NCBI RefSeq assembly: GCF_009834535.1
Contig: NC_045696.1
Coordinates: 63,986,001-64,050,000 of the forward strand
Length of the DNA stretch: 64,000 nucleotides
From: Camelus ferus
Lineage: Eukaryota
Direction: 5' to 3'
Within the stretch, counting starts at the first letter, position 1. Each line of letters begins with the position of its first letter. The notes under the pieces are model-generated. The model saw nothing but the letters and a program-made list of their open reading frames with translations. It searched no databases and had not been told where the DNA came from. Below, one piece after another: positions 19,338 through 64,000 of the stretch. The position numbers and the translations under genes are program-made.

Positions 19338-19511
19338 GAGATATTTGGCTACCGGACTCAGAGCTGCCGGAAAACCCTCTGCCTTGCCGGCTCCATTTTC
19401 TCCTTTGGGATTCTCCCCTTGGTGTTTTACTGGAGACCCGCTTGGCACGTGTGGGCAAACTGCATCCCGTGTTCCTTGCAAGAAGCAGATGTCGTGCTGC
19501 TGAGGACAACA
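19338..19511 (+). CDS. ATP13A4: ATP13A4 (P5B-type cation/polyamine-transporting ATPase), coding exon 2
   Basis: gtcccag| 174 nt |gtaagt, phase 0-0; EIFGYRTQSCRKTLCLAGSIFSFGILPLVFYWRPAWHVWANCIPCSLQEADVVLLRTT is near-identical to the recalled human ATP13A4 N-terminus. Confidence 0.95.
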
Positions 19512-21049
19512 GTAAGTATGTCCCCGGTCTTGTACCTTGCGGCCTTTTCCCCCGGACGTCTTGTGATGGGATGGCTGTGGGGAGAGGGGCGCAGGGCAGG
19601 CGGCAGCTGGAGGTTCCAGCCTTTGGTTCTGTCACAGCCTTTCATTTATTTACCAAGAGTTCAATAATTTGTGTATGATGGGATTTCATGAAGAAGACCT
19701 ATGTCACAGGGTAGTCCTTTTAAAACTGTGATTTTAGTGAATATTGGAGTAGGGAATAATCATGTTATTGGCTAAAAGTAATAGGTAGTGTGAAGGGAAG
19801 TCAGGCTCCAGGCAGTAACATTCACACTCATTTTTCCCCTGCATCCTGACATATCCATGCTTATCCCAGCCCTCCTCCAGTGGAGCATCCCTGGGGGAAG
19901 GGAGGAAGGAGAAGGGGGAGGAGATGGGAAGCAACCTCCCCCACCCGGCAGAGGATACAGTCTTCCACAGCTCCTTGAGGGAGCCACGGTTCTTGGTAAG
20001 GGTGTATTACATCCTGCAGACGTGCTAGGGTAAAAATGCAGCCATCTTGTCCCCGAGGTCATTGCCCTTTTCTGCTAATACCAGGTCCTGGTGTCAGGTG
20101 AGAGTCCCTATATTCTCTTTGACACTGACACTCATCACACTTAGGCGATGAGCACTGTTCTTGCTGGAGTGTCAGCTCCACAAGAGAGGGGACCATTTCC
20201 AACTTGCTAATTGCTGCATCCCTAGATACTGCACGGGGTACAGATTCCATAAATGCGTGGTGGTTGACAGGCTAAAGTAGATATTCCTCTTGATAAGAGT
20301 CAAAGTACAGTCTCACAGAGGACCCATTTCTGTCTGTCTTTTACTGAGTGGGTCTCCCAATGCATCAGCCCAAAAGACCCAGAACGACAACCCAATTCTA
20401 GATAAATCAAACTCTACTGGCTGTTAGCTTTTTTTATGTACAACAACCTCTCTAAACATTTTCTTTATTGCAGCAGGAGGAGAGGACAGCAACTAGTCTT
20501 ATAACTGATGAAAAAACAAAAGTTCCACAATTCAATCTAATGGAGTTGGGGCTAGACCCCAGGGAAACTAGGACTGGGATGAGGTTTGTCTTTGTGAACT
20601 TGGCTTCCCTGGGGTCAGCCCCACCCCTTATTTCTGGATCTTGGCCACTTCAAGAACCACCTATTCTATGCCTCAGCTTAGCTGACATATGAACCATGAC
20701 ACAGGTGACAGCTGAAGCAGTTCCTCCCAACTTCAACTATAATTTAACTCGGATTCTTGGAGAATAAAGTTCAAGACCTTAAGAAGGCTAGATTCTAGTG
20801 GAGTAAGAGCAAGTCATATTGATGATGTTAGGCTGCCTCAAGCCATAGTTCATGAAGGCTCAGGGAATCTGCATGAGAGAAGACTGCCTGGTGCTCACCA
20901 AGGAAGACTTCGTCCTTTGATGGGGAGGAAATGGGGCCTGGAGAGGGGACACACCCACACTTCTTGGTGAGAGAAGACCTAACCAGGACTAAGTTGCATT
21001 TATCCCAGCTCCTAGTTCAAGGCTGTTTCCCATGCAACTGCACCGAGAC

Positions 21050-38219: not shown

Positions 38220-38319
38220 NNNNNNNNNNNNNNNNNNNNNNNNNNNNNNNNNNNNNNNNNNNNNNNNNNNNNNNNNNNNNNNNNNNNNNNNNNNNNNNNN
38301 NNNNNNNNNNNNNNNNNNN
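38220..38319. other. Assembly gap (100 N)
   Basis: Exactly 100 N, the usual placeholder for a gap of unknown size. Confidence 0.99.
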
Positions 38320-39815: not shown

Positions 39816-41045
39816 CTCAGCCACCAAAGGGCTTTCTTCAGAGGTTATACTTGAGGTAAGGGCTCCAGCGATGTGGAGAAAAGGTTTGAAATGATTCGAG
39901 GTTAAGGTTCACCTCAGGTAGGACCAACAGGGGCGCCCATGGGACGTTCGTCCCCGGCTCTTGCTGACTAGACCTGTGTCTGACCCCAAGTGGCGCACTT
40001 TGTGGAGTCGTCCCGTGGTGCACACACAAGACATCCGGACTTCCATGATTAAAAGGAACTTGATGTGTGAAATCAGCCATAGGATTTCATAATAAAAATA
40101 AGTCAGGTTTTCCCAGAATGTTCAAAGTGCATTAAGGTCCTCAAAGGATGACTCTCTCACCAGGGCTGCCAGCAGAAGTGATCGCCCTCGGCGGGGGGGG
40201 GGGGGGGGGGGGGGGGAGGTCCGGTGCTGTGCTCCCTCCCAGCGCCTCCCCCACCTCCCGTGTCGTCTCCCTCTCAGCCTATTTCTACTCTCCTGGGGAT
40301 GCCTCACCCCACTTCTCCCTCCTTCCCTTTCTCCCCACTCTTCCTTTTGAAAACAAATCCTTTCTCTCCTCCCCTCTCTTCTCTCCTCTCTGGCTCCCTC
40401 CTCTTCCTGGGCCAACCCTCCTTCCTTCTGTCCTGTCCCTCTTCCCCGCAGGAGTCCCCTGAAGGCTTTCTCCTCTCAGCATTTCACTGGGTCGCACTAA
40501 GCAGTGCCAGCTGTGCTTATCCAATGCACATCTGAGGACGAGCTAGTCTCCTCGCAAGCCCTCCCAAGGGAAATAAAGCATTACCAGCCTCAGAAATTGA
40601 TCTGGCTGCCTTGAGGTCTGCGGGGAGGAGAGGGGAGCTTTGCCCTTCTGTGGGCTGGATGGGAAGGGTCCATGTAAACAGGACCGTGCTTACATCCAGC
40701 AGTGCTGCCCAGGCCTGAGCCAGGTCCTAGTTCCTCCAACAGTCTGGGAGCTGTCATCACAACCACTGGAGTCATATCCGTAGAAACGGATTTAAAGAGA
40801 CCATAGAGGCATCTAAATTAAAGCTTCTCTTTTTACAGCTGAGGAAATAGACAGCCAGAGAAATTAAGCGATGTGTTTAAAGTCACATAGATGGTCAGTG
40901 TTAGGGACCAGGTGGTGGCTATTTACAATAGCTTTGGGTTGAAAAAAAAAAGCCTACAGGACAGCCAAGGCTGGTGATGATACAACAGCCAGGTCCCTGG
41001 GGCATCTCACTCAGCAAAGGAAACAGAAAGCACGTCAAGACTCAC

Positions 41046-41423
41046 CTAATAGTTGGGCGGTGGTGTACTAGCCTGGTCTGTATAGAGACTCTGTGGCTGA
41101 CTGTCTTCGGAGAGGTTCAGCTTGACTCTAGGGAAGATGCTCCCATGTGCTCCGAGATTGAGGTTTCCATAGGGACCCTGTGGCTGACTGTCTTCAGAGA
41201 GGTTCAGCCTGACTCTGGGGAAGATGCTCCCATGTGCTCCGAGATTGAGGTTTGCATAGGGACCCTGTGGCTGACTGTCTTCAGAGAGGTTCAGACTGAC
41301 TTTAGGAAGATGCTCCCATCTGCTCCGAGATTGCTAAAGCCGGTCATCTCCTGTAGTCTCAGATTTTGAAATTCATTCTCAACCAAGTTCTGTTCTTCCA
41401 TATTCTTGCCTTTGATCTTTAAT
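41046..41423 (-). CDS. MUC13: MUC13 exon 11 (cytoplasmic tail); contains a -1 indel at 41305-41306
   Basis: gattacag|A TTA AAG... reads LKIKGKNMEEQNLVENEFQNLRLQEMTGFSNLGADGSIF(P)KV...PPPNY TAG|gtgagt, similar to recalled human EEENLIDEDFQNLKLRSTGFTNLGAEGSVFPKV...PRPDY; 378 nt where 379 are needed. Confidence 0.92.
41073..41332 (-). repeat. MUC13: Three tandem 87-bp (29-aa) coding repeats in the MUC13 tail
   Basis: ctgtggctgactgtcttc recurs at 41091, 41178 and 41265 (period 87). Confidence 0.97.
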
Positions 41424-43405
41424 CTGTAATCAGTAACAGGAATTAGAATCTGACAATGGTGGCAAGTTCCTTGAAGCGAATATTAATATTTTATTTAAAA
41501 AAGATTTAACATTTTGAGTAATTTCAAATTACGTATAAGTTACAAAAAACAGTATTACACGAAGCTCCCATACATCTATCCACCCAGATTCCCCGTTGTT
41601 AATATTTCTGAGCTATTTAAGAACAAGCTGCAGACCTGATGTCCACCACCCATAGTGTCTCATTACTTCATTCCATGCAGATTCCCTCAGTCCATTCATA
41701 AGTTTCCAGGAAACCATCAAACCAGAACGTTAATCCTGATCTAGCATTACTGTCTCATTCTACTGATCCCATTTACTATTTGCTAATAATGTTAGTATTG
41801 TTAAATGTGTCTTTGAATTCTTTATGGAAATGATAATAAAGGTCAAAGAAAAAGATGATTTGTGACAAAACTTTCATTCAGGCAGAGTCACTATCCACAG
41901 AAGCACCTCAGTGAATTAAGTGAGTCCCCAGGTATAAAGGTCTCAGGAGGAGGAACCAAAGTTTTCCCAGGTTCTGCTGCAGGCCCTCAGGGATCTCAAA
42001 GGGTCAAAGCCAAATGGAAGTATTTGCAGGTGAAGGAGGCATCTGCCCCAAGTGAACCTCAAACCCCAGCCATGGTCCTGCCCTTCAGAGTGGGTCGTGG
42101 GGCCAGAGGCACCTATGATGGCCACAGGGCAGTCCCAGGGTGAGCCTCAGACACTGGGAATGTTGTAAAGGAAGACCCAGCCCCCTGGTGACCGTGATGG
42201 CCAGCCCAGCCCACAGTACAGCTCCTGCCCTGTGACAGCCCTCCTGTCTAAGGTGACGGAGGAGAGGTTTCCTTCCCTTGAAATGGACAAGGAAATGATA
42301 ACTCCTGGCTTGCTCCCAAGAGTCACGAGACTGAGGACTGAGCTAAGAGCAAGCCAGGCTCTGCACTAGGAGGGAGAACCGAGAACCAGGGCTGTCCCAG
42401 GGGCGAGCGTCCCCCCACGGCCCCGCAGGGCAGGAGCCAGTCCCGAGAGAGACAGCCTGGCTCCAGAACCCTGGGGTCCCTGGCCCTCTCCCTGCAAAAG
42501 GATCATTCTCAGTTCCCAGCTTGGCATCCTGGCAAGCAAGTCTCTGGGGAAGAGTTAATATCAAAATGGAATAGAAGACAAATAAAATTTTAGAAAAGTA
42601 AACTCTATTTGTCCTCTCTTGTTACAGTGCAAAAATACCTATTTTGCCAAAATTTGATAGCAGATAAATGTTATTTTTAAGTAGCTTGGTTTTACTACAG
42701 TGGCTCCTCACTTGGCACATTTAGAATGGACTGGATAACAGCTTTCACCCTGCTGATGGAGGGAACTCAAGATATCTAACTATTCGTTCAGGAAATGAAT
42801 GGACCCCACTCAGTTTTAAGAAGAGCACTTAAGACACCGCGCTGAGGAGCAGCCATGAGGAGATCATGTTTCTAAAGCCCAGGGGCTCACTTGAGGTTGT
42901 CTGGCTATTTGTGTGAAGACCTGGGCAGGGGAGTGATTGATGAAAATTAGATCTGACAACATCAGTGGAGTCAAATACGCTAACAGACGAGTCTCAGTGC
43001 CATCAGAGAGCGGCTGCTCTGTCACAGTACAGTATTAAGCAAAAACAAACCTCAGGAAAAAAAATTTTAAAACACAAAGAATACAAAATTATCTATGTCA
43101 TTTTAAAAGGTAGAAACAACCTGGAAGAATGTATTTCAAAATGTTGGTGACTGCAGGGTGTCAGGTTTTGTGGGTGAGTGTTTATTCTGCTCCTGTACAC
43201 ATTTCTCTCTTTTCTTCAATGATCATGTGTAGCTTATAGAATCAGAAGAAAATTCAGGTAAGAAAAAAAGGTCATTGGTGTGAGAGAGGCCTCGCCGTAT
43301 TTTTCAGCTCTTGCCCAGGGAAGTCTGGGCACGTCTGGAAGTTTGGAAACCAGAGTGTAATGATGGTATCACTGTGTCCCCCAAAAGGGACACTTCATCC
43401 TATAC

Positions 43406-43490
43406 CTTATCGAGAAGATGAATGCAGTCACTACACCGAGGATGAGGATGCCAGCAATGGTACCCACGATGGTGAGGATCAGCTGAAAAT
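43406..43490 (-). CDS. MUC13: MUC13 exon 10 (transmembrane helix)
   Basis: ctttcag| 85 nt |gtatag, phase 1-2; (N)FQLILTIVGTIAGILILGVVTAFIFSI(R). Confidence 0.95.
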
Positions 43491-44257: not shown

Positions 44258-45066
44258 TAACCACTTGGATTTTTTCTTCTGCATGACTGCCCTGCGTATC
44301 ACCTCCAACCTCACTCACGGGGCTATCAACCATTAAGTCTAGGAAAAAACCCTCAAAGGTGATCTGGTCCGAAACTCTCATTTTATAGGTGTGGACACAG
44401 AAACCCCAGAAAGGAGAAATGATTTAGCAAACCCAGCCTCACAGCAAAAGATAGTAGGAATTGAAAGCATTTCTCATCATTAACTTTGTGGCTGGCTGAG
44501 AGACTGACAGGGGTATTTCATTCATCACTGATCTTTTAATTCATTACATACAATTTCAAATATAAAATCATTTAACATATAAAGTTAGTATTGACCCCAA
44601 CTGGTGGGAAAGAACTAAGCAACTGAATTTGCAACAACACATGCAAACTAAGAAATCACTCTCAGGCAGAAAAGATTTGAATATTTAACGTCTGTTTTCT
44701 GGTTCTGCTCTCCCATGACCACACATTTTTGGAAAACACTGGCCTTGGATCCTTTCTAGCAGCAGACAAGGCATATTTAAGCTACTGTAGGAAGGAAACA
44801 TAAGGTTGGGACTCCCTTCTTGGCCTGGGGCAAGTCCAGAGGCAGCAGCCCACGTGCTGGACTGACTTCTCTGATTTCTCACAGCAGAGGGGCCCTGCCC
44901 GAGACTAAGGGTGGGCATGGGATGGCCTGACCCAGAAGACAAACACAGGCAGGTTTTCTGTGTCTTTGAGAAACAGGCCCGAGACTTGGGGCACTGGACA
45001 GATTCTGAATGTGGTCAAGGTTTGCATCTCAGTTATTGAATAACAGAGCAAGACTTTTCTACTCAC

Positions 45067-45104
45067 TGTCTTTACAGCCAACTCCGCTGTAGCCAAATGC
45101 ACAC
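45067..45104 (-). CDS. MUC13: MUC13 exon 9 (juxtamembrane Cys-rich piece)
   Basis: tgtttcag| 38 nt |gtgagt, phase 2-1; CAFGYSGVGCKD (recalled human CAFGYSGLDCKD). Confidence 0.95.
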
Positions 45105-45568
45105 CTGAAACACAAGGAGCAGGAAACCGTGGTAAAGAGCCTTGTGGGAGCAGGCCAGACCTCCCACCCAACCTCCGTATGGTCCTTGCATCTCTTTCTT
45201 TATCCTCCCTGTTCCATCTTCTTTTCGTCATTTCTTTCTTACCCTCCCCATCTTCCTGGCTAAACCTGGAAGGTTGAGGGGGGCACACAATCCCACATGC
45301 TTCCATTTGCTACCATGAATGCTCATGCTGTGAGCACCAGGAGGATTCAGCAATTCAGGGGAGGCTGAGCCTGAGAGGCACGGAGCATAGCAGGACCCCC
45401 TCGGGCTGTGGGCCTACCTGGCCCTGCTGAATATTTGCTGCCCTGTGAGGTGGGGCACGTTATTTATATTCTTTGAGCTTCGGGTTCCTCACCTGAAAAT
45501 GGGGACAGTGCTGTTGTGTGAGAAGAATTACCTAGTGTGGTTCCTAGCACACAGAGGATGTTCAAAAG

Positions 45569-45832
45569 GCTGCTGCTGCTGCTGCTGATGGTGATGATGG
45601 TGGTAGTGGTGATGATGGTGATGATGGTGATGATGGTGGTGTAGCGGTGATTGTGATGGTGATGGTGGTGATGGTGGTGATGGTGGTGATGATGGTGGTG
45701 TAATGGTGGTGATGATGGTGGTGGTGGTGATAGTGGTGGCAGGGATAGAGGTGGTGTTGGGTGGTTGGTGGTGGTGGTGGTAACGACGATGGTTATGATG
45801 ACGATAGTGATGATGACAGTCATGGTCATGAT
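45569..45832. repeat. Low-complexity (GGT/GAT)n trinucleotide tract with a short (CTG)n lead
   Basis: Seen directly; lies in MUC13 intron 8. Confidence 0.92.
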
Positions 45833-45959
45833 GCTCTGTACCTACCAGCTTTTGGCAGGAGCCAACACCCTGACCCTAAACTCATACATCTGTTACAAGC
45901 TCTATCCTTTTCGCTCAGCCTCAGCTACGGCAAGATGAAAAAGCAGTGTCTTCTCTTAC

Positions 45960-46091
45960 GGTTGACAGGCCCCGTGGACTGTCCTCCCGGTAGCCCGGCA
46001 GGCACACGCAGTCCGCGCTCGTGCTGCTCCTCACTAAACATTGCCGCTTGTTCTCTGCGTTGCAGGGTGTCATCGCAGGTTGGACCGAAGG
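45960..46091 (-). CDS. MUC13: MUC13 exon 8 (EGF-like 3); contains two +1 indels
   Basis: tttgtag| 132 nt |gtaaga where 130 are needed; corrected reading AFGPTCDDTCNAENKRQCLVRSSTSADCVCLPGYREDS..ACQP has the Cys pattern of recalled human KCPDACNAQHKQCLIKK...CACVPGYQEDANGNCQ. Confidence 0.9.
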
Positions 46092-46419
46092 CTACAAACA
46101 GAGTGATTTCTGGTAATTTCAGACACAACCTCCTCCTATCCAAAGTGACATGTCACAGAAATACAGTGTTTTTCACATTGCTCTTTCTAGGTAAAAGGAA
46201 AGTGCTCAGTGGTCTGCACGTAATGTGCCCCCTGTGAAGCTGCACAAGGCTCTCCTCACCGGCTCTCAGCCAAGGCCCCACCCAGGTCCGTAGGTCTACA
46301 GCCAACATTCCCACTCCTTAGACTCTGAAATGCACATGGGAACTTGAGCAGGACAGTCTGTATTTTGAAAATGTATAAGGAGAGAGGAGAGGGACATTTA
46401 GAACCAAGGGAGCCCTTAC

Positions 46420-46546
46420 CGACACACATGGGGATCTGCGGGTTGGGCCTCACCAGCCCCTGTTTGCACTGACACAGTAAACCACTGGAGCAGTTTGTCC
46501 TGGTCATTCTTCTTCTCACAACCATAGTAGTCACACCGGTCTTGCT
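46420..46546 (-). CDS. MUC13: MUC13 exon 7 (EGF-like 2); contains a +1 indel
   Basis: ctctcag| 127 nt |gtaagg where 126 are needed; EQDRCDYYGCEKKNDQD in one frame and NCSSGLLCQCKQGLVRPNPQIPMCV in the next. Confidence 0.92.
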
Positions 46547-49229
46547 CTGAGAGGCACACAGAATTCAAAGATGAATTAGGAAGACAGTATGGATAGGTGA
46601 CTTGTAAAGCACTCACTCAATTGTTGTGGTAATTGCTTTTTAATAGGTTTGGAATTTAACAAATAAAGACCTGAGACTCTAAAATTCAAGGCCCCAATCA
46701 TTTCTTCTATATCTATATCCTATATTACTCAATTCAAATTAATTCAATCCAGTGCAGTACAGTTATGTTCAATTTCAAGACCTCTTTTGCACCTGGCTCT
46801 TTGCTGGATTCCACAGGGGACACAGTAGCTGTGTAAGTTTCAGGCCCCATCTTTGTAGAGTTACATGACTGTCACATCCAGCAGCAGCCTTAGGAAACAG
46901 TGGGAACTCAGGGGCTCGGGTAGCTAAAGGTCACATTGTGGAGGAGGTGGGTACTGGGCCAAGTGCTGAAAGATGGGGAAGATATGAACAGTCAAAGGAG
47001 AGACAAAATCTGTCGAAGTGCAGTAAGTGAGGCATGAAAAGAAGTGAAGGATTGTTGTCCGGGAGTGACGGAGTTTGTACGTGGGCAGAAGAGAGGCAGA
47101 GAGGTGAGGAGGGAACGTCAGGATTTCTCAGCTCTGCCGTTGATTGGCTGTGGGCTTCCTGTTCAATTATTTCATTGGTGGTGGGTCCACGTTCCCTCCA
47201 TCTATGAACTAAGGCTAATGATTCTTGTTTCGTGTGATTGTTGCGAGAATGAATGAGATCATGGAAATGCAAGTGTCCACTCAGCAAATAATCGTTGTTT
47301 TGTTCATTCACAGGTAGAGCAGGGTTTGAACACAAGGCTAAGGACATTGATGTTTATCATATAAGCCTGAAAATCATTGGTCGATTTTGACCAGAAGCAT
47401 GGCAGGAGGAAGCAATCTGGTAAGTAAGTTAGTCTAGAAGCAGAGCGGAAGGCATTAGGGATAAATGGGGGAACGTGAGGATGGATGATGGGGAGGGGAT
47501 AGGAGCAGGTAGAGCAGATACGTGCTCACTCTCTTCTAAACACCCCAAATCCATACCTGACCTTCCTTCATCACCTGCCCTTTCAAAATGCCTCCAATTA
47601 AAAGCTTAGAGAAAGAGATTCTACAGCTTTTGACACAGAAGAATCTGTCTTTGCAGCAGGAGCAAGAGAGCATGAGAAGCTGTTTTTCTCCAGAAGTTTG
47701 GCACTCTCACGTCCATTTGCTGGGCGGTTCATGCTCCTGTGGCCACCTCGAGCTGGCAGCATGTGGTATTTGCTAATGTATCTCAGAGTACGTGACTGGT
47801 CTCAGAGTGGGGAGATGCTGAGAGCAGCTGGTAAAGAAGAGCATTTCTCAGTCTGAGGCTGAACGGTTTCAAGTTGGCCAGAGCTCAGAGCCAAGTAGAA
47901 CCAAATGAGAGCACGGCAAAGGGTACTCAACTATGTCCTGAAGGGTACAATGGTTATTTTCATCTAGTACCCACTCTGAGCGGTCAGTCCCCATGCTGAT
48001 GGGAACCCTCAACTTCCTCGCACTTGCTGGAGATCTCATCTAGCCCAAAGCAGAGCGTAGGATAAGGTTCTGTCTTGCCCTGCTGACAATTTCACCTTCC
48101 GGGGGAGAGGTTCTGACTGCATGAATTGCTACCCTCAGCCAAATTCTGACCCCAAGGAGAAATTTATCGGCAGGCAGAAGTGATGGGTCTCCCGGAAGAC
48201 AAGGATCACGTGACAGCCAGAAAGAGGAGTGTGACTTAGAGTAAATGTTGACATGTTCAGAAAGGACAAGGTGTAGGTCCACGGCACGAGACTCTGGAAG
48301 ATGAAAGTAGAAGAGAAGGTAAGAAGCTCTGAAAATGTGATTATAACTGTGCAGCTGCAAATGATCCCAATAGATGTAGAAAAAAAATACAGTGGGAGAG
48401 TGTCTGTAACTTAAGAAACTGGCATGGTTTGCACAGAAGCTCTCAGATGAGAGACAGAAACAAAATATGAAAAGAAGGTCCTGGAACCAAAGATGGAATA
48501 TTAAACATGTGACACAGTCTAGAGTCCCAAATGAGTTCAAGTTTGCCACAAGCAAAACCCAAAACAGCAGCAAGAGTCCAATGACACAGAGTAAAGGGTT
48601 TAAACATGAAAATGGGTAAATAGTGAAGGGGTGTGTGTCTCTTCCACCAGGAATAATACTTGGATGGAAAAGAGTTGAATGGACATGGCTAAGGGAACTG
48701 AAGTCCCCGGAAAGAACACAGAGCAGAGCAGCCCCCATCATTCCTGACAAAAGTTTAAGTATTTTATTCCAGAGCATTTATATTCCAGGTCCTGAGAGAA
48801 CAGTGAGAATCTTTGTGGAATCTTGAAAAAAAGATAAAAGAGAGAGAGAGAGAGAAGGTGCCGGAAAACGATCAATGACCAGGATTTCTTTATATTTTCA
48901 AAAAGAGAAATAAATTTTGCAAACTAGGCCATGGAGGTTCCAAACATCAAAAAGCAAACATTCAAGAGACGAAAAGAGGAGTCTTGGAAGGATCAAAAAT
49001 GAAGATGAGGGAGGCGGGCAGGGGTCAAGGGAAGGTGGGGGGAGGCCCAGAGAGAAAAGGACTTCAGGACGGGGAGGGAGCAGTGTCAGAGGCTACAGAG
49101 AAGTCAGAGAAATTGTTCCTCAGCAGAAGCCTTTGGATTGGTTGCCACAGGGAGAACCAGTTATAAAGAACTTCCCGCAGGCCAGCCGGCCCTAACAGCT
49201 CCCTCTGAGGGGAGGACCTCCTGAGGACG

Positions 49230-49697
49230 GCTGTGCTGGTTGCAGTCATAGTACCAGTTTACTCCTGCCTTCCTATCTACTCCCCTAGCAGCACCGGGCA
49301 CACTGTGTTTGGTCATGTGAACTGAGGACAGTTGTAAAATCTAACATAAGCAGAAAGTGAGAAACACCTGTGTATTGAAACTTGCCCTCTTGCTGCTCTT
49401 GAAACTCTTTGGGACTAACCTGCTGGGGGATGAGAGACCACGTGGAGCAGGGACTAACTGTCCCGCTGAATCATCTGAGATCAACTGGTCCCCAGGAGGC
49501 CCACCCAGCAGCTAACGGCAGATGCCTAAGTGAGCCCAGCAGAGAGCAGCCAAGCTCCACCTAGGTCAGCAGAAGTGCCCAGCTGAGCTCAGCCCACATT
49601 CTGACCCAGAGAATCACGGTGCGGTAATAAATAAATGGTGGTTGTTTTAGGCCACTAAGTTTGGGGTGTTTGTAACACAGCAGAAATGAACAGTCAC
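49230..49697 (+). mobile_element. MaLR (MLT1-type) solo LTR
   Basis: ccagctgagctcagccca...aataaatggtggttgttttaggccactaagtttggggtgtttgtaacacagca is a typical MLT1 3' end; 5' limit uncertain. Confidence 0.75.
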
Positions 49698-50107
49698 AGC
49701 TCTGCTGTGGGCTTGTGTGTCTGCCTAGAGGAGAGCCAGTATAAGTAAAACTTTCTGTGAGCATTTGGAAAGCTCTAACTTGGTAGAGAGCCCTCTTTTT
49801 TCTCCTTCTTCATCTTTCCATGTCCAGAGGCTATTTGTCCAAGACTACCTTCCAAGCAGAGGGACAAACTAGTCCATTTTTTGACTTAGGAGACAGTTAG
49901 GAAGGAGCAGAAGCCACGTGAGAGAGGAAAGGGAGGGAGGAAGAAAGGACGGTGCAAAGGAAAACTCGTCTGTGGACGTCAAAGGACAGATGTCTGTGGA
50001 TTCAATTACCCAGTTCTTCTGGCCCCCTTCACACAAATAATAGCAAAGTTTATGAAAACCTAGATAGGTCTTCAGGTAAATGTGGAATAAAATTATTTGA
50101 TACTTAC

Positions 50108-50274
50108 CAGTATATCCTGTAAAGACATCTGCATTGTCTTCAATTGCTTTTGTAATTGCATTAGATACTGTAGTCTCATTTAGTTCTGTAGTTTCCTTAA
50201 AGATGTTTACTACTTCTACGTCAACATCCTTGTCACCAGCACGCAATTCAGATCTTGCTGCAGATGTCCTAAGA
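50108..50274 (-). CDS. MUC13: MUC13 exon 6 (SEA domain, C-terminal part)
   Basis: tttcag| ... |gtaagt, phase 2-1; TSAARSELRAGDKDVDVEVVNIFKETTELNETTVSNAITKAIEDNADVFTGYT. A second in-frame acceptor would start the exon at 50268. Confidence 0.92.
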
Positions 50275-52089
50275 CTGAAATGAAATCATTACTTGATGAA
50301 TTGAACTTAAGCTTCAACAAATAGGTCTTCAGACCTCCCAGACTCTCAAATCTCCCAGCACTAGTCCCGACCCACTGTTCTAAATCCACAGTTGAGGCCC
50401 ACATAGGGAGACCTGGGGTTGCAGTAAGATGGCAGTTCATAGCCCAGAGATCTCTATTCGATGTGCATTCAGAGGAAATCTATGGCTACAATAAGGTCCT
50501 GCTGGAAGGTACGTAAAAACATTGTGGACAAACTTGTTTAGCATCTAGGAGCCCGGAGTGAACCAGAAGTAGAAGTTGCATCTGAAATAGGAAAGTGTCA
50601 CTTTCTGCAGAAAATCAGGAGTACATTTCTTAACAACCTGTAAAATCTCAGACTTGTGCTTTGAGAGAGACAGATGGGTGTGTGTTCCTCCCTGCGCACA
50701 GAGAGAGCAGTAATCCACCACACAGAGTCTGGGTCATTCCCAGAAAAGGCCCAGGAAGCCAGCAGACAGTTCAAAGTGCATGCAGATTGGGCCTGGGCAC
50801 ATAGGACCCAGAGAAGAACTGATCCCAAGGAGGGTGGGGCTGGGGGAAGCATCAGCATACAGCCCCACATCACATCCCCAGACACTAAGTCCTCCTACGA
50901 CCAGGACATCGTAAGGGCCTCTCTCTCGAATCAGCGCTGCAATTTGGGGCCCTAAGAACAGCTGTGCCAAGTTCTGTTTCATTATCCAAAAGGAATCAAG
51001 TCACACAACCACTGAGAGAGAGAGAGAGAAACGACTGTTAAAACCTGCTTCCCTCTCTGATTAGTGTCCGTGTTTTTTTTTAAGACTCAGGATCTATTTT
51101 TCCTGTCTAATTATTTTCCTGTATTCTCTTTTGACATCTGAATAAACACAGAAGCTTGAAAACATAGCCAGCCTGCTTGGGAAATGTTCACCGCCATGTG
51201 GTTCTGCAGAACAATCAAGAAAAACCGAACATGAACCAAATTCTGCTTTTTAGGAATCATCCCATAAAAAGGGATTCCAAAACGAAAAATGGGCTTCCAA
51301 TTCTAATTAAAAGTTTCCTACAGTAATTTGCTCATAGTAGGATTTGAAGGCGGGAGTGGAAGGAACAGGGCAGTGAGAAAGGGGTACTTGACACAAGCAA
51401 TTCTTTATCGGTTGAAAGATGCCCAGAGATCCACGGTGTAACTCTGCAGTGGGGCTAGGGAAGAAGTGCCGTCCATTATTCATTGATTCAGAGAACCTAC
51501 TAGCACACACCCCAAGTCAGGAGGCAAGACGTCACACTCACAGAACATTTACAGGAAACACTGGAGCAGCCGCGCACTTAAGCGACAAGAGGTGCAGAAT
51601 GCAGGACTACAGCGCGGCTTGCAGTTAAGCACCCAGGGATCGAGACCCAGGATGGACAGGACACCGTCTTCTGTGGCCCAAGACCAGTCCCAGCTTCCCT
51701 GAACCTGAGTGTCCTCCTCTGTCCAAACAGAGCTTCGAGTGTTTGAGAAACTCTGAGGATCCTTCTCATTCCAACATTTAGGCAGGAAATAAAAAGATCT
51801 TGGGGAATCAGAGGCAAGGGCACTGGTCTGGAGTCTAAGAAATGCCTTTGAAAGTGAAACCAAGGTCCACGTGCCGGGCAGGGCCCCTGAGCTGAAGGGA
51901 GTCACTCCTCCCCAGGACACTGAGCTCACAGGTGAGGGGTTGCCTCCAAACACCGCTGGCTCCCTTTCAGTAACTTCTTAGGAATGACGGGAGTGCCAGA
52001 GTGTCAGGGAACCCCCAGATGACCTTGTGGGGCCAGCTCTCCCTCACACTTGCAGGGTCTGTTATTCTGGACAGGAAACAGACGGGAAC

Positions 52090-52300
52090 TAACGTGTTGA
52101 AACTGACTCTGTTCCAGGCACTTTGCACAGGGAATCTTCCCAAGGGTATCTCATTTGCTCCTCCCGGGGTTTCAAAAGTTGATTGGATTATCCCAGTTGT
52201 ACAGATGAAGTAATAAAAATTTAGAGAGGTTAAATCACCTGCCTAGTCACACAGCAAGTGGTGCCAAGGCCAGGATTCGAGTGTGGATTTAGCTGACCCC
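52090..52300 (-). mobile_element. MIR SINE
   Basis: attatcccagttgtacagatgaag...agagaggttaaatcacctgcctagtcacacagcaagtgg...caggattcga. Confidence 0.7.
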
Positions 52301-53284
52301 ACCACACTGCACTGATCCTGTTTTTATCCAGTCATCCCGATGCACGAACTCCTTGTTTTCCCTTAAGCCAAACCTAATGCCCTGACAGTTGGTGGCTGTA
52401 CCTCCAGCTTTGAGCCTCCACATCGGGGCTCAGCTCCCTGCCTGCCGCTTGCCCTGGGCCTCCTATTGGCTGCCTGCTGTCCTGGCCACCAATCATATGG
52501 GACCCTTGTTCACCGCCAAGATCAAAACGCACCAGCTTTAGGAGGTCTTCTCTGAATTTATATATATGAATGTATATATTGTACATTTTTCCAGTATGGA
52601 TTTGACAAAGCTTATAAAGATAGATGAGGTAGTAAAACCATAAAATACAAATACATTAGGGCTGCTTTTTCTGCATGACTCCGTTCACCTTAGAGCTGCC
52701 TTTCCCCGGCCTGCTGCACTTGTGTGTCAGCAGGCTTCAGAGAAGGCCGAGATGGAATCACTGACTTTTTTGAGGCTCCTCTGCCTCTTTGGGTTCCTTA
52801 GTAGCACGTAACCCTGGTCATTGAATATTCATATGCTCACTGAATGCCTGTTCTTCTGAAGAAAGAGCTCAGGACGGGCCCTTCAGTGGCCAGGTGTGTG
52901 CCTGGGGAACTCCTCTCTGCTCATTCCCCCCATGAGGGAAGAGACAGCCGTGAGCCACTCATTCTGCTCCTGGCCCCCTGGAAGGAACATGGTTTGTAGC
53001 CAAGGGATCAAACCAAACAAACTGATGACTGGTGATGTCATGTGTGCACACTGCTGTGTCGCCAATCACAGGCAGCATCTTGCTGTCCCCAGGCTACACC
53101 CTGCGCACCCAGGCATGGCTCAGTATGACATCAGAGGCTGGTCCCTCTGCAGTGAGTGCTCTTCCTGACATGTGACTCGCCACCCTAGGGCCTCAGTGCC
53201 TCACGGGGAATGCCAGAGAAGATGGGAAGATAGGCATACACACACCTGCTTCCAAAGTTCCCCTTCAGTCCACAGCAAACTTAC

Positions 53285-53340
53285 CTTATTTTAACAATTA
53301 CAGTCTGTCCGTAATCAGAATTGTTAAATGCCTTTTTAAA
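53285..53340 (-). CDS. MUC13: MUC13 exon 5 (SEA domain)
   Basis: tcctccacag| 56 nt |gtaagt, phase 0-2; FKKAFNNSDYGQTVIVKI. Confidence 0.93.
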
Positions 53341-56300
53341 CTGTGGAGGAAAAGAACAGATTTAATAACTACAAAGAGGGGGGAAATGTGATACTGTATC
53401 TATGTTTTAGCATAAGTCCATTTCTAAACTCATTTATACAAATAATACAGCAAATTATTTATTCTTTACATACGCTCTAACACCTTTCAGTAAGTTTTGC
53501 TTTGAAATAGTAAGATTCTGATATAATTCAGAGCTACCCAGGAAAAAGCAGGAAACCTAAAGCACTCAGTCAAATCAATGATCACTCTCTTAAAAATCAG
53601 CTGACTAACTTCAGTTTTGTCTTATCAAAGCCACGGTGAAGTTCTGCAAGTCTGTTACACTTACCTGTATGCAAACTTCATACACTCATCATTTATCCAG
53701 GAACACATAATTGCCTGCCTTCCCAGGGCGTCAGGCCAGGAACACGGAGATGACCAAGGTGGGCAGAACCAGCCTGAGAGCCAATGGGGGCTACACCATG
53801 AACTTGAGTGAGGGGAGCACCACAGAGAGTATGATCTACCCTGGGCGTTCAGAGAAAACTCCCTCCAGGCTGCAGAGAAGCAGAGCGAGCGGCACAAAGG
53901 AGAGCAGCCTTCCAGCACTTCAGCGGGTGGTGCGGGGCCAGGGCGCGGAGCGAGCGGCAGCCCGGGCCGGCCTTCAGAGGTGGCGGGGCTCAGAGCGGAG
54001 CGGGCTCAAGTGCCACCTTTCTCCCCCCGTCAGCTTTCTTTGAACCTCGCTGTCTGACTGGGAAGTGTGAGATAGCAGTAATTTCCACCACCCAAGGCCG
54101 CAGGTGTAGACGAGGAGGGGGAGTAAAGGATCGTGGCTTTGTGCGCTGGAAGGGGCTCCAGCACAGGTAGATCTTGCTAGGCTCGAGTTGTGTCCCAGGA
54201 GCAGAGACAACTCTAGAAATTTATACAGACGTGGCCAGAGGTAAAGCTGGGACTCTGGCAGGGGTGAGGGGATGGGTGTCCCAATTAGAACATAAGTTCT
54301 TTGATGACACAAATGAGATTCATTTTCTCTTTCTTAGGACACAACCCCCCTCCCGCCTGCTCACCCCTATCCTCGTCCCACAGCGCCCAGCACCAGGCAG
54401 ACCCCAGGAAATACCCACACCAGCTGACTGATGACTGAGGGAATTAAATGTGAAAGTCATGACCTTGGACGTGTCTTCTCCTTTTTGGGCCCCAGTCTCC
54501 ATGTTTATTACATGAGTGTTGAACTGGGTTGGTGCAACTGTTTTAGAATCCAAGAATTTTATTATTTTTCTCCCACGGGGGCCCTACATTTTAAAAGATC
54601 TTGGCAACCAATGTCACTTAGAAAGATGTTAGAACATTTCTCTTTCATTCTAGTCAAATCCAAATAAATTTGATGCTCTCCTTATTCTGGGCAGCCTTAT
54701 ATCTGGAATATGTCAGATTCCTTTTCAATTCTTTTAAATATTAGGAAGGGCTGGTATTTCTGTAAACCATCAGGGCCCCAGGTATCTACTTGAAAAAAGT
54801 TCACTGAATGACCTCCAAGTTTCCATCATCTCCCCTACTGACCACTGCCCATTTAATTTCCTTAATCTCAAAGAAGAGATTGCAAAATTAGCATCTGCCA
54901 TTGGAAAAGGGTTTCCATTTTTCCCTCTTCCAGGCCACCCTTTGAGGATTTGGGGATATGCACCTCTTCAGCGGAAGGGCTGCAAGGCTGGGCAGGAGGG
55001 CAGGAGTTATCCAACAGGCCTGCCGGCTTCCACTGCACAGCAGAGCCAGCAGGGAAGGAGAAGCAGCTCCGTGGTCAGGCAGGTCTGGGTTCACATCCCC
55101 CCACCCCGTCCTCACTCATCAGCTGGGCGACCTTCGGCCAGTTACTCAGCCTTCCTGATCCTTGACTGCCCACCTCACCTGCAGAACAGTTCCACAGCAC
55201 CGTCTCCCCCATGTGGCGATTTTGAGAACTAGAAATATTATGCATAAAATGCCAGGTACAGCAGCAGTAGGGAAACTTCAAAACCCTGTGCAGACTGTCC
55301 CTTTGAATCTATCTGGGGACAAAAAGGACCCTGGGAGACGTCTCAGGGCCTGAGCTGGCACTGCCCTGGCCATAGAGTCTGCTAAGTGGACCTGGAAGAA
55401 AGTAAATGTCTCTCTTTCCCCACCTCTAGTTGTTGCAAAGGAGTTTTGGTGCTTCCCTTTCAGATTGATAGCCTCTTAGAAATTACAAGAGTGCTCTAGC
55501 CCTTCCTGCTTCCCCAGGATCATTGAGACCTGCCTGAGATCAAGTCACTGAACTAGACTCTGAAGCCCGGGGCCTAGGCCTGTAGCCAGAGGGGGTTTTG
55601 GACACTCGTACTCAGAGCAAGTTGGGAAGTGCAGTGGCCACAGTGGCCAGAGATTGGTAAAGCCACACAAGACCATCAGGGGTTCCCTGGAAGCAGGAAC
55701 ACACTGGTGTTACTGTCCTCAATGTAGCACGTATCATGCAAGCGGGGATTTGGAATGTAGACCCAGGGTGAGAGGCTAAGTCCGGCCAGCTGGCCCCTGG
55801 TGCACAGGTGGTGCAGCAAAGGGGCAGGGCAAGCCCGGGGCACCCGGGCATTGCTCACAGTGCCTGGCACCGGCTGTTTGCTTGTAAGCACTCACTCTGT
55901 CTGTACCATCTGTAAATCATTTGGATAATAATTTTTCATGTTTAACAAATTCTAATAACAAAACTCTTTTGTAATGATATAATTTCAAATTGAAAGACAT
56001 TGACATAGAGTAAGATTTTAATTTTTAACATCTTACTAGAATTCTAAGATGTATTTACAAGCTAACATTTTCTTCTTCAAAACCAAACTTTGAGAAATAC
56101 TGGCTGGAGGCCCTAAGACCTTCCAGATCTGACAGCAGTTGGTCCAGAATGAAGATCTCCATCTCTCCATGTTGACATTCTTACTCACAGTAATCAAAAT
56201 GAAACGAAGCTATTGTTCATTTTGACATTTTTGAACATGGGAAAATGAAATAACGGATGTTAAGTCAGATGGAGTTCCTCTTCCAGATGTTAAAAAAGCC

Positions 56301-56716
56301 AGACAAGCACAGGAAAATGTGCAAATTTGATTGTAAAAAGAAAAATATCTTTAATTTTTTTTTCTCTTCAAGACTATGAAAATAATTTATTTTAAAGCAT
56401 CATTACATTTATCTGTCCATTTAAAAATATTTTAATAGCCTCTGTAAGAATGAGTATGGCATGGCCGCCAGGTGTAGGGGCAGGGGTGCGGGGACCAGGG
56501 CCCCAGAGGAGGAGCTGGGCAACCAGGAAGCAGTGACACCCGGGAACTGGGGACAGTTACTGTTTACCAGCCAATAAGGGTGCATTTCTCTGTTTGAACC
56601 ACTGGTACAGCCACACCCATGTGAACCACCTGAATGTCATTCTCTAGTTAGAGAGAGAATAGTCAGTGTTAGAATAAAGAATATCTGTATGGAAAAGACA
56701 GTTGGAAAATACTTAC

Positions 56717-56823
56717 AAATTCAGTAATTTCAAAATGTAATTTTTGATAGGCCACAGAATTTTCATCTTTCAAGTCCTCTATATTTGATGTTTTGAATGT
56801 AATTGTACCAGGGAATATCTTTC
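56717..56823 (-). CDS. MUC13: MUC13 exon 4 (SEA domain, N-terminal part)
   Basis: atttcag| 107 nt |gtaagt, phase 1-0; (G)KIFPGTITFKTSNIEDLKDENSVAYQKLHFEITEF. Confidence 0.94.
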
Positions 56824-58012
56824 CTGAAATTCAAGCAGAATATTTCTGTGATACTTAATGTAAAAAGGGCCATTTCCATTTTGTTTAAAACATAGATTAT
56901 TGTAAAAAAATTCTAAACTTATGAAGATACTACTGGAAGTATGGGAATACGAAAAACATTACCCCCTATTTCTCCCAGCTCTGTTTTTTTTCTGTGCCTG
57001 GTTTACATCGTTATAGCTCCAATATATATCATGAGTCTTCTTTACTTATTATTACATAATAAACATTTTTCCAAATTATTACTTAGGCTTTGTAACTATC
57101 ATTCTAAATGCTATATAGTATTCTATGAAATACATGTTCCCTCCATTGATTTTTTTTAGTGCTTTTAATTATTTAAAAGGGAAAAAAAGCTTGCAGTGAA
57201 CGTCTTCATACACAGAGCTTTCTATTTTGGAGGTCATTTACTTAGAGTGCACCCTCAGAAATGAGATTATTAGTGCTTAAGATAGGACATCCTTCTGCGT
57301 TTTGGTATATCTCTAATCCCTGTGGCCAGTACAGTTCATTCATGTCCTATAGAGTTGGTCTGCTCTGGGAAGGAAGGGTATTTCTCATTCAGAAAACAGA
57401 TCCACATTTATAAATCAGTAAACAGCCTTGGACTTTCATAGCAGTCAGCTGGTCTAACCAAAAAAGTGTAGTGCTGATTTGCTCCTAAAGTCCGTTTCCA
57501 GAGCTGAGAAGCTCTTAAGTCTCCAAAAATAGGGTTTGGTGTTTGGAAGAAGCAAATCCTATGACAACACAGAACAGGACCAAGGTCAGAGCTGAAGTAG
57601 ACCGGCTTGTCTGGCTGAGTGGTTTTAGGCATACGGCCTTATTCTGTATCAGAGGAGCCACGGAGCAGCACCACCCTGTGTTTATGCAGCCTTTGTACTT
57701 TGTCAGGGACTTCAGCACCTCTCATTCTCATTTTGACCCCATGGCACCTTTCCTTGAACTGGTGAGGTGAAGGGACACATGCACTCCTGTACCTTCAGGA
57801 CTAGCTCCCAGGTCTGACTCGGTCCATTTCCTCTCCCACTAGGTCCCAGTGAGATAAAGACAGGTGCCTCTTCTCTACTTGGTGGGGCTTTGTGGCCTCC
57901 AAATTTGCCTCTACCTTTAGAATTCTGGAGGCTCTTTTCACCATCATCTTAAGTTTTCTATTCCATTTAGGTCTGAGGTGCAGGTCTACATGGTTCATCC
58001 CTTGTCACTCAC

Positions 58013-58135
58013 CTTTACTGCATGTGGAAGAGTTATAGTATTGCCCTTCTGGACACAGGCAGAAAAATGTATCATTCAGACTCACACACGAAGAACCACC
58101 CTTACAGGAATCCTCTTGGCAAGGGTTGGTGGGAC
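58013..58135 (-). CDS. MUC13: MUC13 exon 3 (EGF-like 1)
   Basis: ccattgcag| 123 nt |gtgagt, phase 1-1; (G)PTNPCQEDSCKGGSSCVSLNDTFFCLCPEGQYYNSSTCSK with six Cys. Confidence 0.95.
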
Positions 58136-62568: not shown

Positions 62569-64000
62569 CTGTGGGACCAGGGTTTGGACTGTTGGTCTCT
62601 GATGAAGTGCTGCTGCCCCAAGTCACAGAAGGAACAGTCCCTATGAAATTACCTTTCGTGACAGTGGTGCCCGCAGCCCCCGTGGTGGGAGGAGGAGGGC
62701 TCGATGCCGTGGTGCCTACAGCCGCCGTGGTGCTCTGAGCCCCCGTGGAGGAAGGAGGAGGGCTCGATGCTGTGGTGCCTACAGCCGCCGTGGTGCTCTG
62801 AGCCCCCGTGGAGGAAGGAGGAGGGCTCGATGCTGTGGTGCCTACAGCCGCCGTGGTGCTCTGAGCCACCGTGGAGGGAGAAGCAGGGCTCGATGCCGTG
62901 TTACCTGCAGCCGCCGTGGTGCTCTGAGCTCCCGAAGAGGGAGTAGCAGGGCTCGATGCCGTGGTACCTGCAGCTGCTGTGGTGCTCTGAGCCGCCGTGG
63001 AGGGAGTAGGAGAGCTTGATGCCGGGGTGCCTGCAGCCTCCGTGGTGCTCTGAGCCCCCGTAGAGGAAGGAGGAGGGCTTGATGCAGTGGTGCTCTGAGT
63101 ACCCGTGGAGGGTGTAGGTGGGCTCGAAGCCATGGTGACTGCAGCCGCCGTGGTGCTAGGAGCCCCCGTGGAGGAATGAGGAAGGCTCGATGCCGTGGTG
63201 CCTACAGCCGCCGTGGTGCTCTGAGCCACCGTGGAGGGAGTAGCAGGGCTTGATGCCGTGGTACCTGCAGCCGCTGTGGTGCTCTGAGCCGCTGTGGAGG
63301 GAGTAGGTGGGCTGGATGCCGTGGTGCCTTCAGCCGCCGTGGTGCTATGAGTCCCTGTGGAGGAAGGAGGAGGGCTGGATGGCGTGGTGCTTGAAGCCGC
63401 TGTGGTGCTGTGAGCACCCGTGGAGGAAGGAGGAAGGTTCGATGCCGTGGTGCCTACAGCCGCCGTGGTGCTCTGAGCCGCCGTGGTGAGAGTAGCAGGG
63501 CTTGATGCTGTGGTGCCTGCAGCCGCCGTGGTGCTCTGAGCCCCCGTGGAGGGAGTAGGAGAGCTTGATGCCGTTGTGCCTGCAGCCGCCGAGGTGCTCT
63601 GAGCCCCCGTGGAGGGAGAAGGAGGGCTCGATGCCGTGGTGGCTGCAGCTGCCGTGGTGCTCTGAGCCCCCGTAGAGGAAGGAGGAGGGCTTGATGCAGT
63701 GGTGCTCTGAGTACCCGTGGAGGGTGTAGGTGGGCTCGAAGCCGTGGTGACTGCAGCCGCCGTGGTGCTAGGATCCCCCGTTGAGGAATGAGGAAGGCTC
63801 GATGCCGTGGTGCCTACAGCCGCCGTGGTGCTCCGAGCCACCGTGGAGGGAGTAGCAGGGCTCGATGCCGTGGTGCCTACAGCTGCCGTGGTGCTCTGAG
63901 CCACCGTGGAGGGAGTAGGTGGGCTCGATGCCGTGGTGCCTACAGCCGCCGTGGTGCTATGAGTGCCTGTGGAGGAAGGAGGTGGGCTCAATGCCGTGCT
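62569..64000 (-). CDS. MUC13: MUC13 exon 2 (Pro/Thr/Ser mucin domain), 5' end outside the window
   Basis: Frame open from the window end for over 475 codons, S/T/P/A-rich; phase-1 donor ACAG|gttaag at 62569 joins in frame to the EGF1 exon. Confidence 0.9.
62680..64000 (-). repeat. MUC13: Mucin tandem array: 63-bp (21-aa) units plus two 45-bp (15-aa) variants
   Basis: tcgatgc recurs at 62701, 62764, ...; consensus SSPPPSSTGAQSTTAAVGTTA; at least 21 units in the window. Confidence 0.97.

Follow-up and report, generated by a model that had tools for sequence, protein, structure and literature searches.

A triplicated tail module in one of two camelid MUC13 paralogs with a putatively homogenised extracellular core

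We confirmed three tandem 87-bp units in the cytoplasmic-tail exon of a MUC13-like gene in a 64,000-nt stretch of the wild camel (Camelus ferus) genome, hereafter the window, and consider it probable (roughly 0.6) that this triple repeat belongs in frame to the tail of one member of a tandem pair of camelid MUC13 paralogs, in which the core is homogenised by gene conversion and the two tails are kept by selection. Gene conversion would keep one EGF-SEA core in both paralogs, and selection would maintain two membrane-tail modules. The long copy would carry a multivalent phospho-docking tail, in which the sites corresponding to human S482, S495 and Y501 are repeated and Y512 is kept; its two YxxL motifs and a terminal PPxY could act as added sorting signals, so that this very large mucin would be taken up or turned over faster. 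The short copy, having lost the equivalents of S482 and Y512 and the Gln of YxxQ, would signal weakly. Since one tail is tripled and the other cut short, the two copies likely have different signalling or trafficking roles.

The repeat was detected by TRF as a period-87 array at 41082–41333 (2.9 copies, 93% matches, score 434), and the three units and their YANL and YGNL motifs lie where an earlier interpretation of the window, made from its letters alone (the sequence-only reading), had placed them (Table 1). In the uncorrected window frame the tail ends at GSIFLKSV*. An extra G behind position 41304 is present at full depth in all four public runs compared over 40900–41600 (three DNA runs under three organism labels and one RNA run, 4 of 24 listed) and also in a second genomic copy (L002, C1:60.03 Mb). 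The base missing from unit 1 is therefore an assembly error of the window copy, as had been supposed, and with the G restored the long-paralog tail has the expected 126 aa; a real frameshift in unit 1, which would have kept the repeats from being translated, is ruled out by the runs and L002. Run contigs tile all three units with 0–2 other letters per contig, which disposes of a single unit in the raw reads and rules out an assembly duplication of the 87-bp units, already judged unlikely in the sequence-only reading; no single contig covers the whole array, and alleles of two or four units are compatible with these data. The in-frame repeat reaches spliced RNA: one RNA contig joins the transmembrane (TM) exon to the tail exon acceptor (loose end at 41425) and runs through unit 1, and a second bridges the junction of units 2 and 3, both from one run at a depth of 2–3. 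The stop codon TAG of the long-paralog tail exon directly adjoins a GTGAGT donor. The repeat was found in none of 364 scored candidates among short proteins (47–151 aa) and in two of 1,791 in a longer search, none of them from alpaca or llama; P0001 carries the Ser of L002 and is not independent support for the repeat.

Table 1. Features of the MUC13-like gene copy in the window (positions counted from the first letter of the window)
Feature	Position	Strand	Remarks
Scaffold gap of 100 N	38220..38319	.	Left edge of the gene-bearing 29-kb contig
Tail exon of the long-PTS/long-tail MUC13-like paralog	41046..41423	-	Sequence; RNA contig
C-terminal PPNY (PPxY pattern)	41049..41060	-	Variant at 41059 gives PRPNY
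Unit 3, ends in YTDQ	41073..41159	-	87 bp; YxxQ, as in 58/115 other tails
171-nt GT..AG skip	41126..41296	-	Reproduces the alpaca and dromedary RefSeq tails exactly; 69 aa
Unit 2, ends in YGNL (41160-41171)	41160..41246	-	87 bp; apparent chimera, 5' part of unit-3 type and 3' part of unit-1 type
Unit 1, ends in YANL (41247-41258)	41247..41332	-	86 bp in the window; base missing behind 41304
Transmembrane exon, 85 nt; second divergence peak	43406..43490	-	16/83 nt distinguish it from the other paralog
Seven exons of the EGF-SEA-EGF core, putatively homogenised between paralogs	45065..58133	-	Three +1 indels in the window copy
3' end of the PTS exon, 63-bp units	62653..64000	-	Extends 3.4 kb beyond the window, up to a scaffold gap

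In RefSeq, the models of alpaca and dromedary are without the repeat and read KVIKLNL, a tail that the 171-nt GT..AG skip of Table 1 yields exactly. The repeat could accordingly be an exitron, i.e. an in-frame intron removed in most mRNA so that the tail returns to its usual length. This is a poor prospect given that the donor (TCA|GTCTGA) is non-consensus, that the acceptor reads GAG and has a TAG lying 2 nt before it, all nine true acceptors of the gene being CAG, and that RNA contigs bridge both sites with no such joint in the four runs (one of them RNA). Moreover, removing the 171 nt restores precisely the customary tail length, which is what a protein-guided model would produce. The skip is likely an annotation artefact, and the alpaca and dromedary models probably cut out the repeat wrongly; judging from its RefSeq model, alpaca would have at least units 1 and 3.

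In the camel's own genome, the search matched C1:60.03 Mb almost identically and C1:60.13 Mb at 82%. Each locus holds a complete MUC13 gene, from exon 1 and the PTS through the core to the TM and tail exons, with about 96 kb between the two. The SEA domain (PF01390) is precomputed on P0001, and the named matches in the protein search are MUC13 proteins, the remainder being unnamed. Paralog pairs are annotated in wild camel (P0001/P0005), dromedary (P0003/P0004) and alpaca (P0002/P0008), and the short type is annotated in the Bactrian camel (P0122), where one short-type sequence stands under two accessions, reflecting isoforms or a duplicated locus in the assembly. The PTS exon of the long copy comprises about 13.3 kb of 63-bp units with an open frame of 4,383 codons (about 4,400 aa; G000:C1:60,056,315-60,069,540, L010–L011) and that of the short paralog less than 1 kb of 45-bp units (about 230–290 aa), repeat lengths in assemblies being uncertain. 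The giant exon has one frameshift near its 3' end. The duplicated unit reaches about 50 kb upstream (G000:C1:60,069,138-60,121,165 vs 60,152,236-60,200,355) with 95–98% identity and patches of 80–87%, and the diverged patches could mark paralog-specific regulatory elements.

The window copy itself is most likely a misplaced haplotype (haplotig) of the 60.03-Mb gene. That it should instead be a genuine third gene is suggested by 128 mismatches in 13.8 kb to the 60.03-Mb copy and by core introns that are often nearer to the short paralog, and is nonetheless highly improbable: the copy sits on a 29-kb contig flanked by two 100-N gaps, its flanks are unlike the MUC13 region, and it contains several indel errors. 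Furthermore, at 40938 and 40942 the runs segregate into window-type and L002-type letters in the manner of alleles, and X1 has a depth of 10.9 over the tail vs 21.2 over the shared 3' part. A P5-ATPase N-terminal exon lies upstream at window positions 19338–19520 (+), and the contig has apparently been scaffolded into an ATP13A-type gene.

Distances and trees were calculated for 14 chosen rows with tails cut at FPKV. In the EGF-SEA core, paralogs within a species differ at 1–3 of 245–246 aa and sequences of different genera at 11–15 of 245 aa; the alpaca paralogs pair up in the core tree (93/88), and the camel rows are unresolved among themselves. In the TM and tail segment, paralogs differ at 23–25 of 73 aa, in camels and alpaca alike, and orthologs at 1–3 of 73, with both paralog clades at 99. 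Because the core groups by genus and the tails by paralog, the MUC13 duplication appears older than the camel–alpaca split, which dates to about 16–17 My, and the core appears to have been homogenised in each lineage. By the same counts, the tail does not clearly exceed the core in conservation between genera.

At the DNA level the seven core exons (752 nt) differ between the paralogs by two substitutions and one indel, the TM exon at 16 of 83 nt and the tail at 28 of 148 nt. The TM and tail exons have a pS of 0.26 (58 sites) and a pN of 0.21, compared to 5.9% (116/1972) in the intervening intron (Fisher p 2e-6 for pS and 2e-11 for pN, sites being assumed independent, which conversion tracts violate). 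In 100-bp bins, divergence reaches 15–21% over the tail exon and 20% over the TM exon, as against 0–3% in many intron bins; further intron bins are also high, with 10–17% at 41.4–41.6, 42.0 and 42.5–42.6 kb. The pattern points to gene conversion, with the TM and tail exons standing out as divergence peaks, and is a stronger finding than the junction motifs on which the sequence-only reading had centred. The dN/dS between the paralog tails is 0.76, so that positive selection in the sense of a dN/dS above 1 was not found between them; between units it ranges from 0.9 to 2.4 on only 5–9 differences, and purifying selection on the units was not seen.

The tail of the short paralog consists of one unit and ends after 59 aa at an early stop, which is common to all four camelid short-type models; the repeat attributed to camelid MUC13 in the sequence-only reading thus holds for the long paralog and does not extend to the gene as such. 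The early TAG stands where unit 3 has a Gln codon, and the terminal Tyr is lost. The sequence context of this TAG is not known as a readthrough signal. In the short-paralog tail exon (L003) the 27 nt past the early TAG are still open and lead through a MUC13-like ending to the old stop.

The three units differ pairwise at 5, 11 and 10 of 87 nt. Unit 2 matches unit 3 at nt 13, 32 and 39 and unit 1 at eight sites from nt 38 on, with two private changes, and could have arisen when two-unit alleles crossed over unequally. Most of the changes that separate the units are non-synonymous, and their number is too small to demonstrate selection. The sequence differences are compatible with a history of gene duplication before the camel–alpaca split, doubling of one unit and an unequal crossover that left a chimeric middle unit. 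The junction codon is CTC, which would be one change from the CGC or CAC expected if the duplication joined the flanking AGC and CAG codons. Both junction Leu residues would for this reason go back to one event, and the Leu at +3 may represent one chance-level match.

Camelid tails were compared to 115 non-camelid tails, which are cluster representatives taken from the 120 best of 129 matches, with some species repeated. NPY is present in 111, YxN in 49, YGN in 8 and YxxQ in 58 of these tails; YxxΦ and PPxY occur in none, and LPxY occurs in three. The repeated tyrosine is the ancestral NPY tyrosine; none of the three units retains the Asn of this motif (GPY, GPY, SLY), which could mean decay. 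GRB2 (YxN), STAT3, AP-2 (YxxΦ) and WW domains such as those of the NEDD4 family (PPxY) are the partners linked to such motifs. YxN is also found in the single-unit short camel paralog, and given its frequency in other tails pY-x-N is not a camelid gain, contrary to the sequence-only reading; GRB2 docking would not be new. The claim that the duplication created YxNL fares better for its last residue, since the Leu at +3 is seen in none of the 115 tails, than for its tyrosine and YxN, which are ancestral. The new features of the long camelid tail are the number of units, the Leu at +3, which makes a YxxΦ pattern twice, and the terminal PPxY. The sequence-only reading had overlooked this PPxY, as well as the YxxQ retained by unit 3 and the pattern of conversion and divergence; the PPxY is PPNY in the window and PPEY in the alpaca model, and is absent from the dromedary model and two of the four runs. 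A second whole module was found in none of 113 non-camelid tails (two tails lay outside the pattern), and a second PY-like motif in 5 of 115. The latter are independent short NPY duplications in rhinoceros, ass, bat, tree shrew and goat (P0036, P0040, P0079, P0092 and P0030; loose in goat), and their distribution suggests recurrent multiplication of the NPY tyrosine in mammalian tails.

Phosphosites listed for human MUC13 include Y501, Y512, S482 and S495 in the portion of the source available (PMC10192752). Residues 488–496 are described as a predicted PKC site within the segment of the tail that, when lost, leads to altered tight junctions (PMC10984281, accessible portion), and a human tail variant at residue 503 is reported, in the part of the article available, to affect iron uptake (PMC13702042). 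By spacing from the PKC peptide, each camelid unit would repeat the S482, S495 and Y501 positions and the long tail would keep Y512; the tripling of GSIFP and Ser sites by the repeat had been noticed before. In the short tail the S482 position is occupied by Asn (91 of the 115 other tails have Ser there and 13 have Asn), and the C-terminal Tyr, kept by 101 of the 115, is absent. The paper linking MUC13 to YAP1 names no WW or PPxY mechanism in its accessible sections (PMC10551643).

How firmly selection can be invoked depends on the exon peaks, which lie far above the intron in divergence, yet intronic peaks exist. The dN/dS of 0.76 and the intron bins at 10–17% may argue against pure selection, and they fit an alternative in which the tail repeat and early mismatches blocked conversion locally; the island would then have diverged neutrally, with the repeat as tolerated filler in a likely disordered tail. 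A dN/dS of about 1 between units, the disappearance of the NPY Asn from all units and the looseness of the YxxΦ pattern, which arose once, agree with such a neutral barrier as well. A barrier at the repeat does not readily account for the TM exon, which lies 2 kb away behind bins of 0–3% and yet has its own 20% peak on 85 nt. The island also persists in both genera, both frames have stayed open and all four short-type models have the early stop in common, and we therefore regard the neutral alternative as unlikely.

The sequence-only reading, in which the junction YxNL motifs give camelid MUC13 GRB2 docking or AP-2 endocytosis, remains tentative. The frame on which it depends is real, YxxΦ is confined to the camelid tails in this comparison and short NPY-like duplications recur in the five tails named above (loosely in goat), and the homologous human Tyr, mapped by spacing, is a listed phosphosite in the available part of the source (PMC10192752). 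This is offset by the commonness of YxN, also present in the short paralog, and by the probable origin of both motifs in one event. The Gly at +1 of YGNL lies outside the usual GRB2 pattern of ELM. With Pro at −1 and Gly at −2 the motifs do not match an ITIM. The AP-2 half would seem more plausible than the GRB2 half, and could be a sub-case of the two-module mechanism preferred here. It is also possible, though doubtful, that camelids have a paired-receptor-like mucin system, with a giant MUC13 bearing a tripled phospho/sorting tail and a short MUC13 with a stripped tail, in which the same partners are contested through the shared core and the tails have been kept apart by selection since before the split.

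Comparison to known systems is based on the accessible portions of the sources cited. Camelid and other mammalian MUC13 (PMC10984281, PMC10192752) have in common a signal peptide, PTS, EGF-SEA-EGF core, TM, FP[KR][VI], NPY-type Tyr and terminal Tyr; other mammals have a single gene with one tail module, whereas camelids have two paralogs, one with a tripled tail and a giant PTS and the other truncated. The red/green opsin genes, in which a divergence peak on exon 5 under gene conversion is taken as a mark of selection (PMC3924837), are likewise an old tandem pair with converted flanks and peaks on particular exons, where alone orthologs are closer than paralogs. The camelid paralogs also group by lineage in the converted parts and by paralog in the peak; their peaks differ in lying on TM and signalling-tail exons.

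Siglec-11/16 (PMC5701461) and CEACAM pairs resemble the camelid pair, as far as described in the accessible literature, in an ectodomain converted per lineage and a distinct TM and tail. Camelid MUC13 differs from them in being without ITIM, ITAM or a charged TM residue and in not sharing the PTS, the likely ligand surface. Homogenisation of the ectodomain holds for the EGF-SEA core and not for the PTS, with its 63- vs 45-bp units and different length. The ITIM, ITAM and hemITAM patterns do not fit the long tail, in which Tyr residues are 29 apart with Gly at −2, in agreement with the sequence-only reading, and neither paralog has a charged TM residue. Because the ITIM/ITAM comparison fails and the PTS is not shared, the camelid pair is not classed as paired receptors. 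Pig MUC13A and MUC13B similarly are two MUC13 forms with distinct PTS repeats and a common core, and are, according to the accessible text, alleles of one gene (PMC3440394) with a disputed causal role (PMC4138166), whereas the camelid forms are fixed separate genes with different tails. Possible MUC13 duplicates were also seen among protein models of Molossus nigricans (P0062/P0135) and Delphinus delphis (P0031/P0127/P0130/P0132), and these models have no tail-specific divergence peak (9/97 vs 17/201 and 0–4/97, respectively).

No paper on this pair was found among those listed for camel MUC13, MUC13 duplication and camelid mucin duplication, with subscription journals mostly outside the coverage, nor, in the same literature, a transmembrane mucin pair shaped by conversion with protected tail exons. 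For the MUC13 tail, the accessible text describes phosphosites and a tight-junction role and no tested docking site (PMC10192752, PMC10984281). Camelids present two tails on one core, one with its sites tripled and one with several lost, and so allow a direct test of tail binding; if the paired-receptor-like reading were true, they would be a natural gain and loss experiment on MUC13 tail tyrosines. In practical terms, the alpaca and dromedary models probably omit the repeat wrongly and the window copy is likely a misplaced contig. A TGG/TGA-rich intronic repeat at window positions 45586–45817 gives rise to spurious His/Thr-rich open reading frames.
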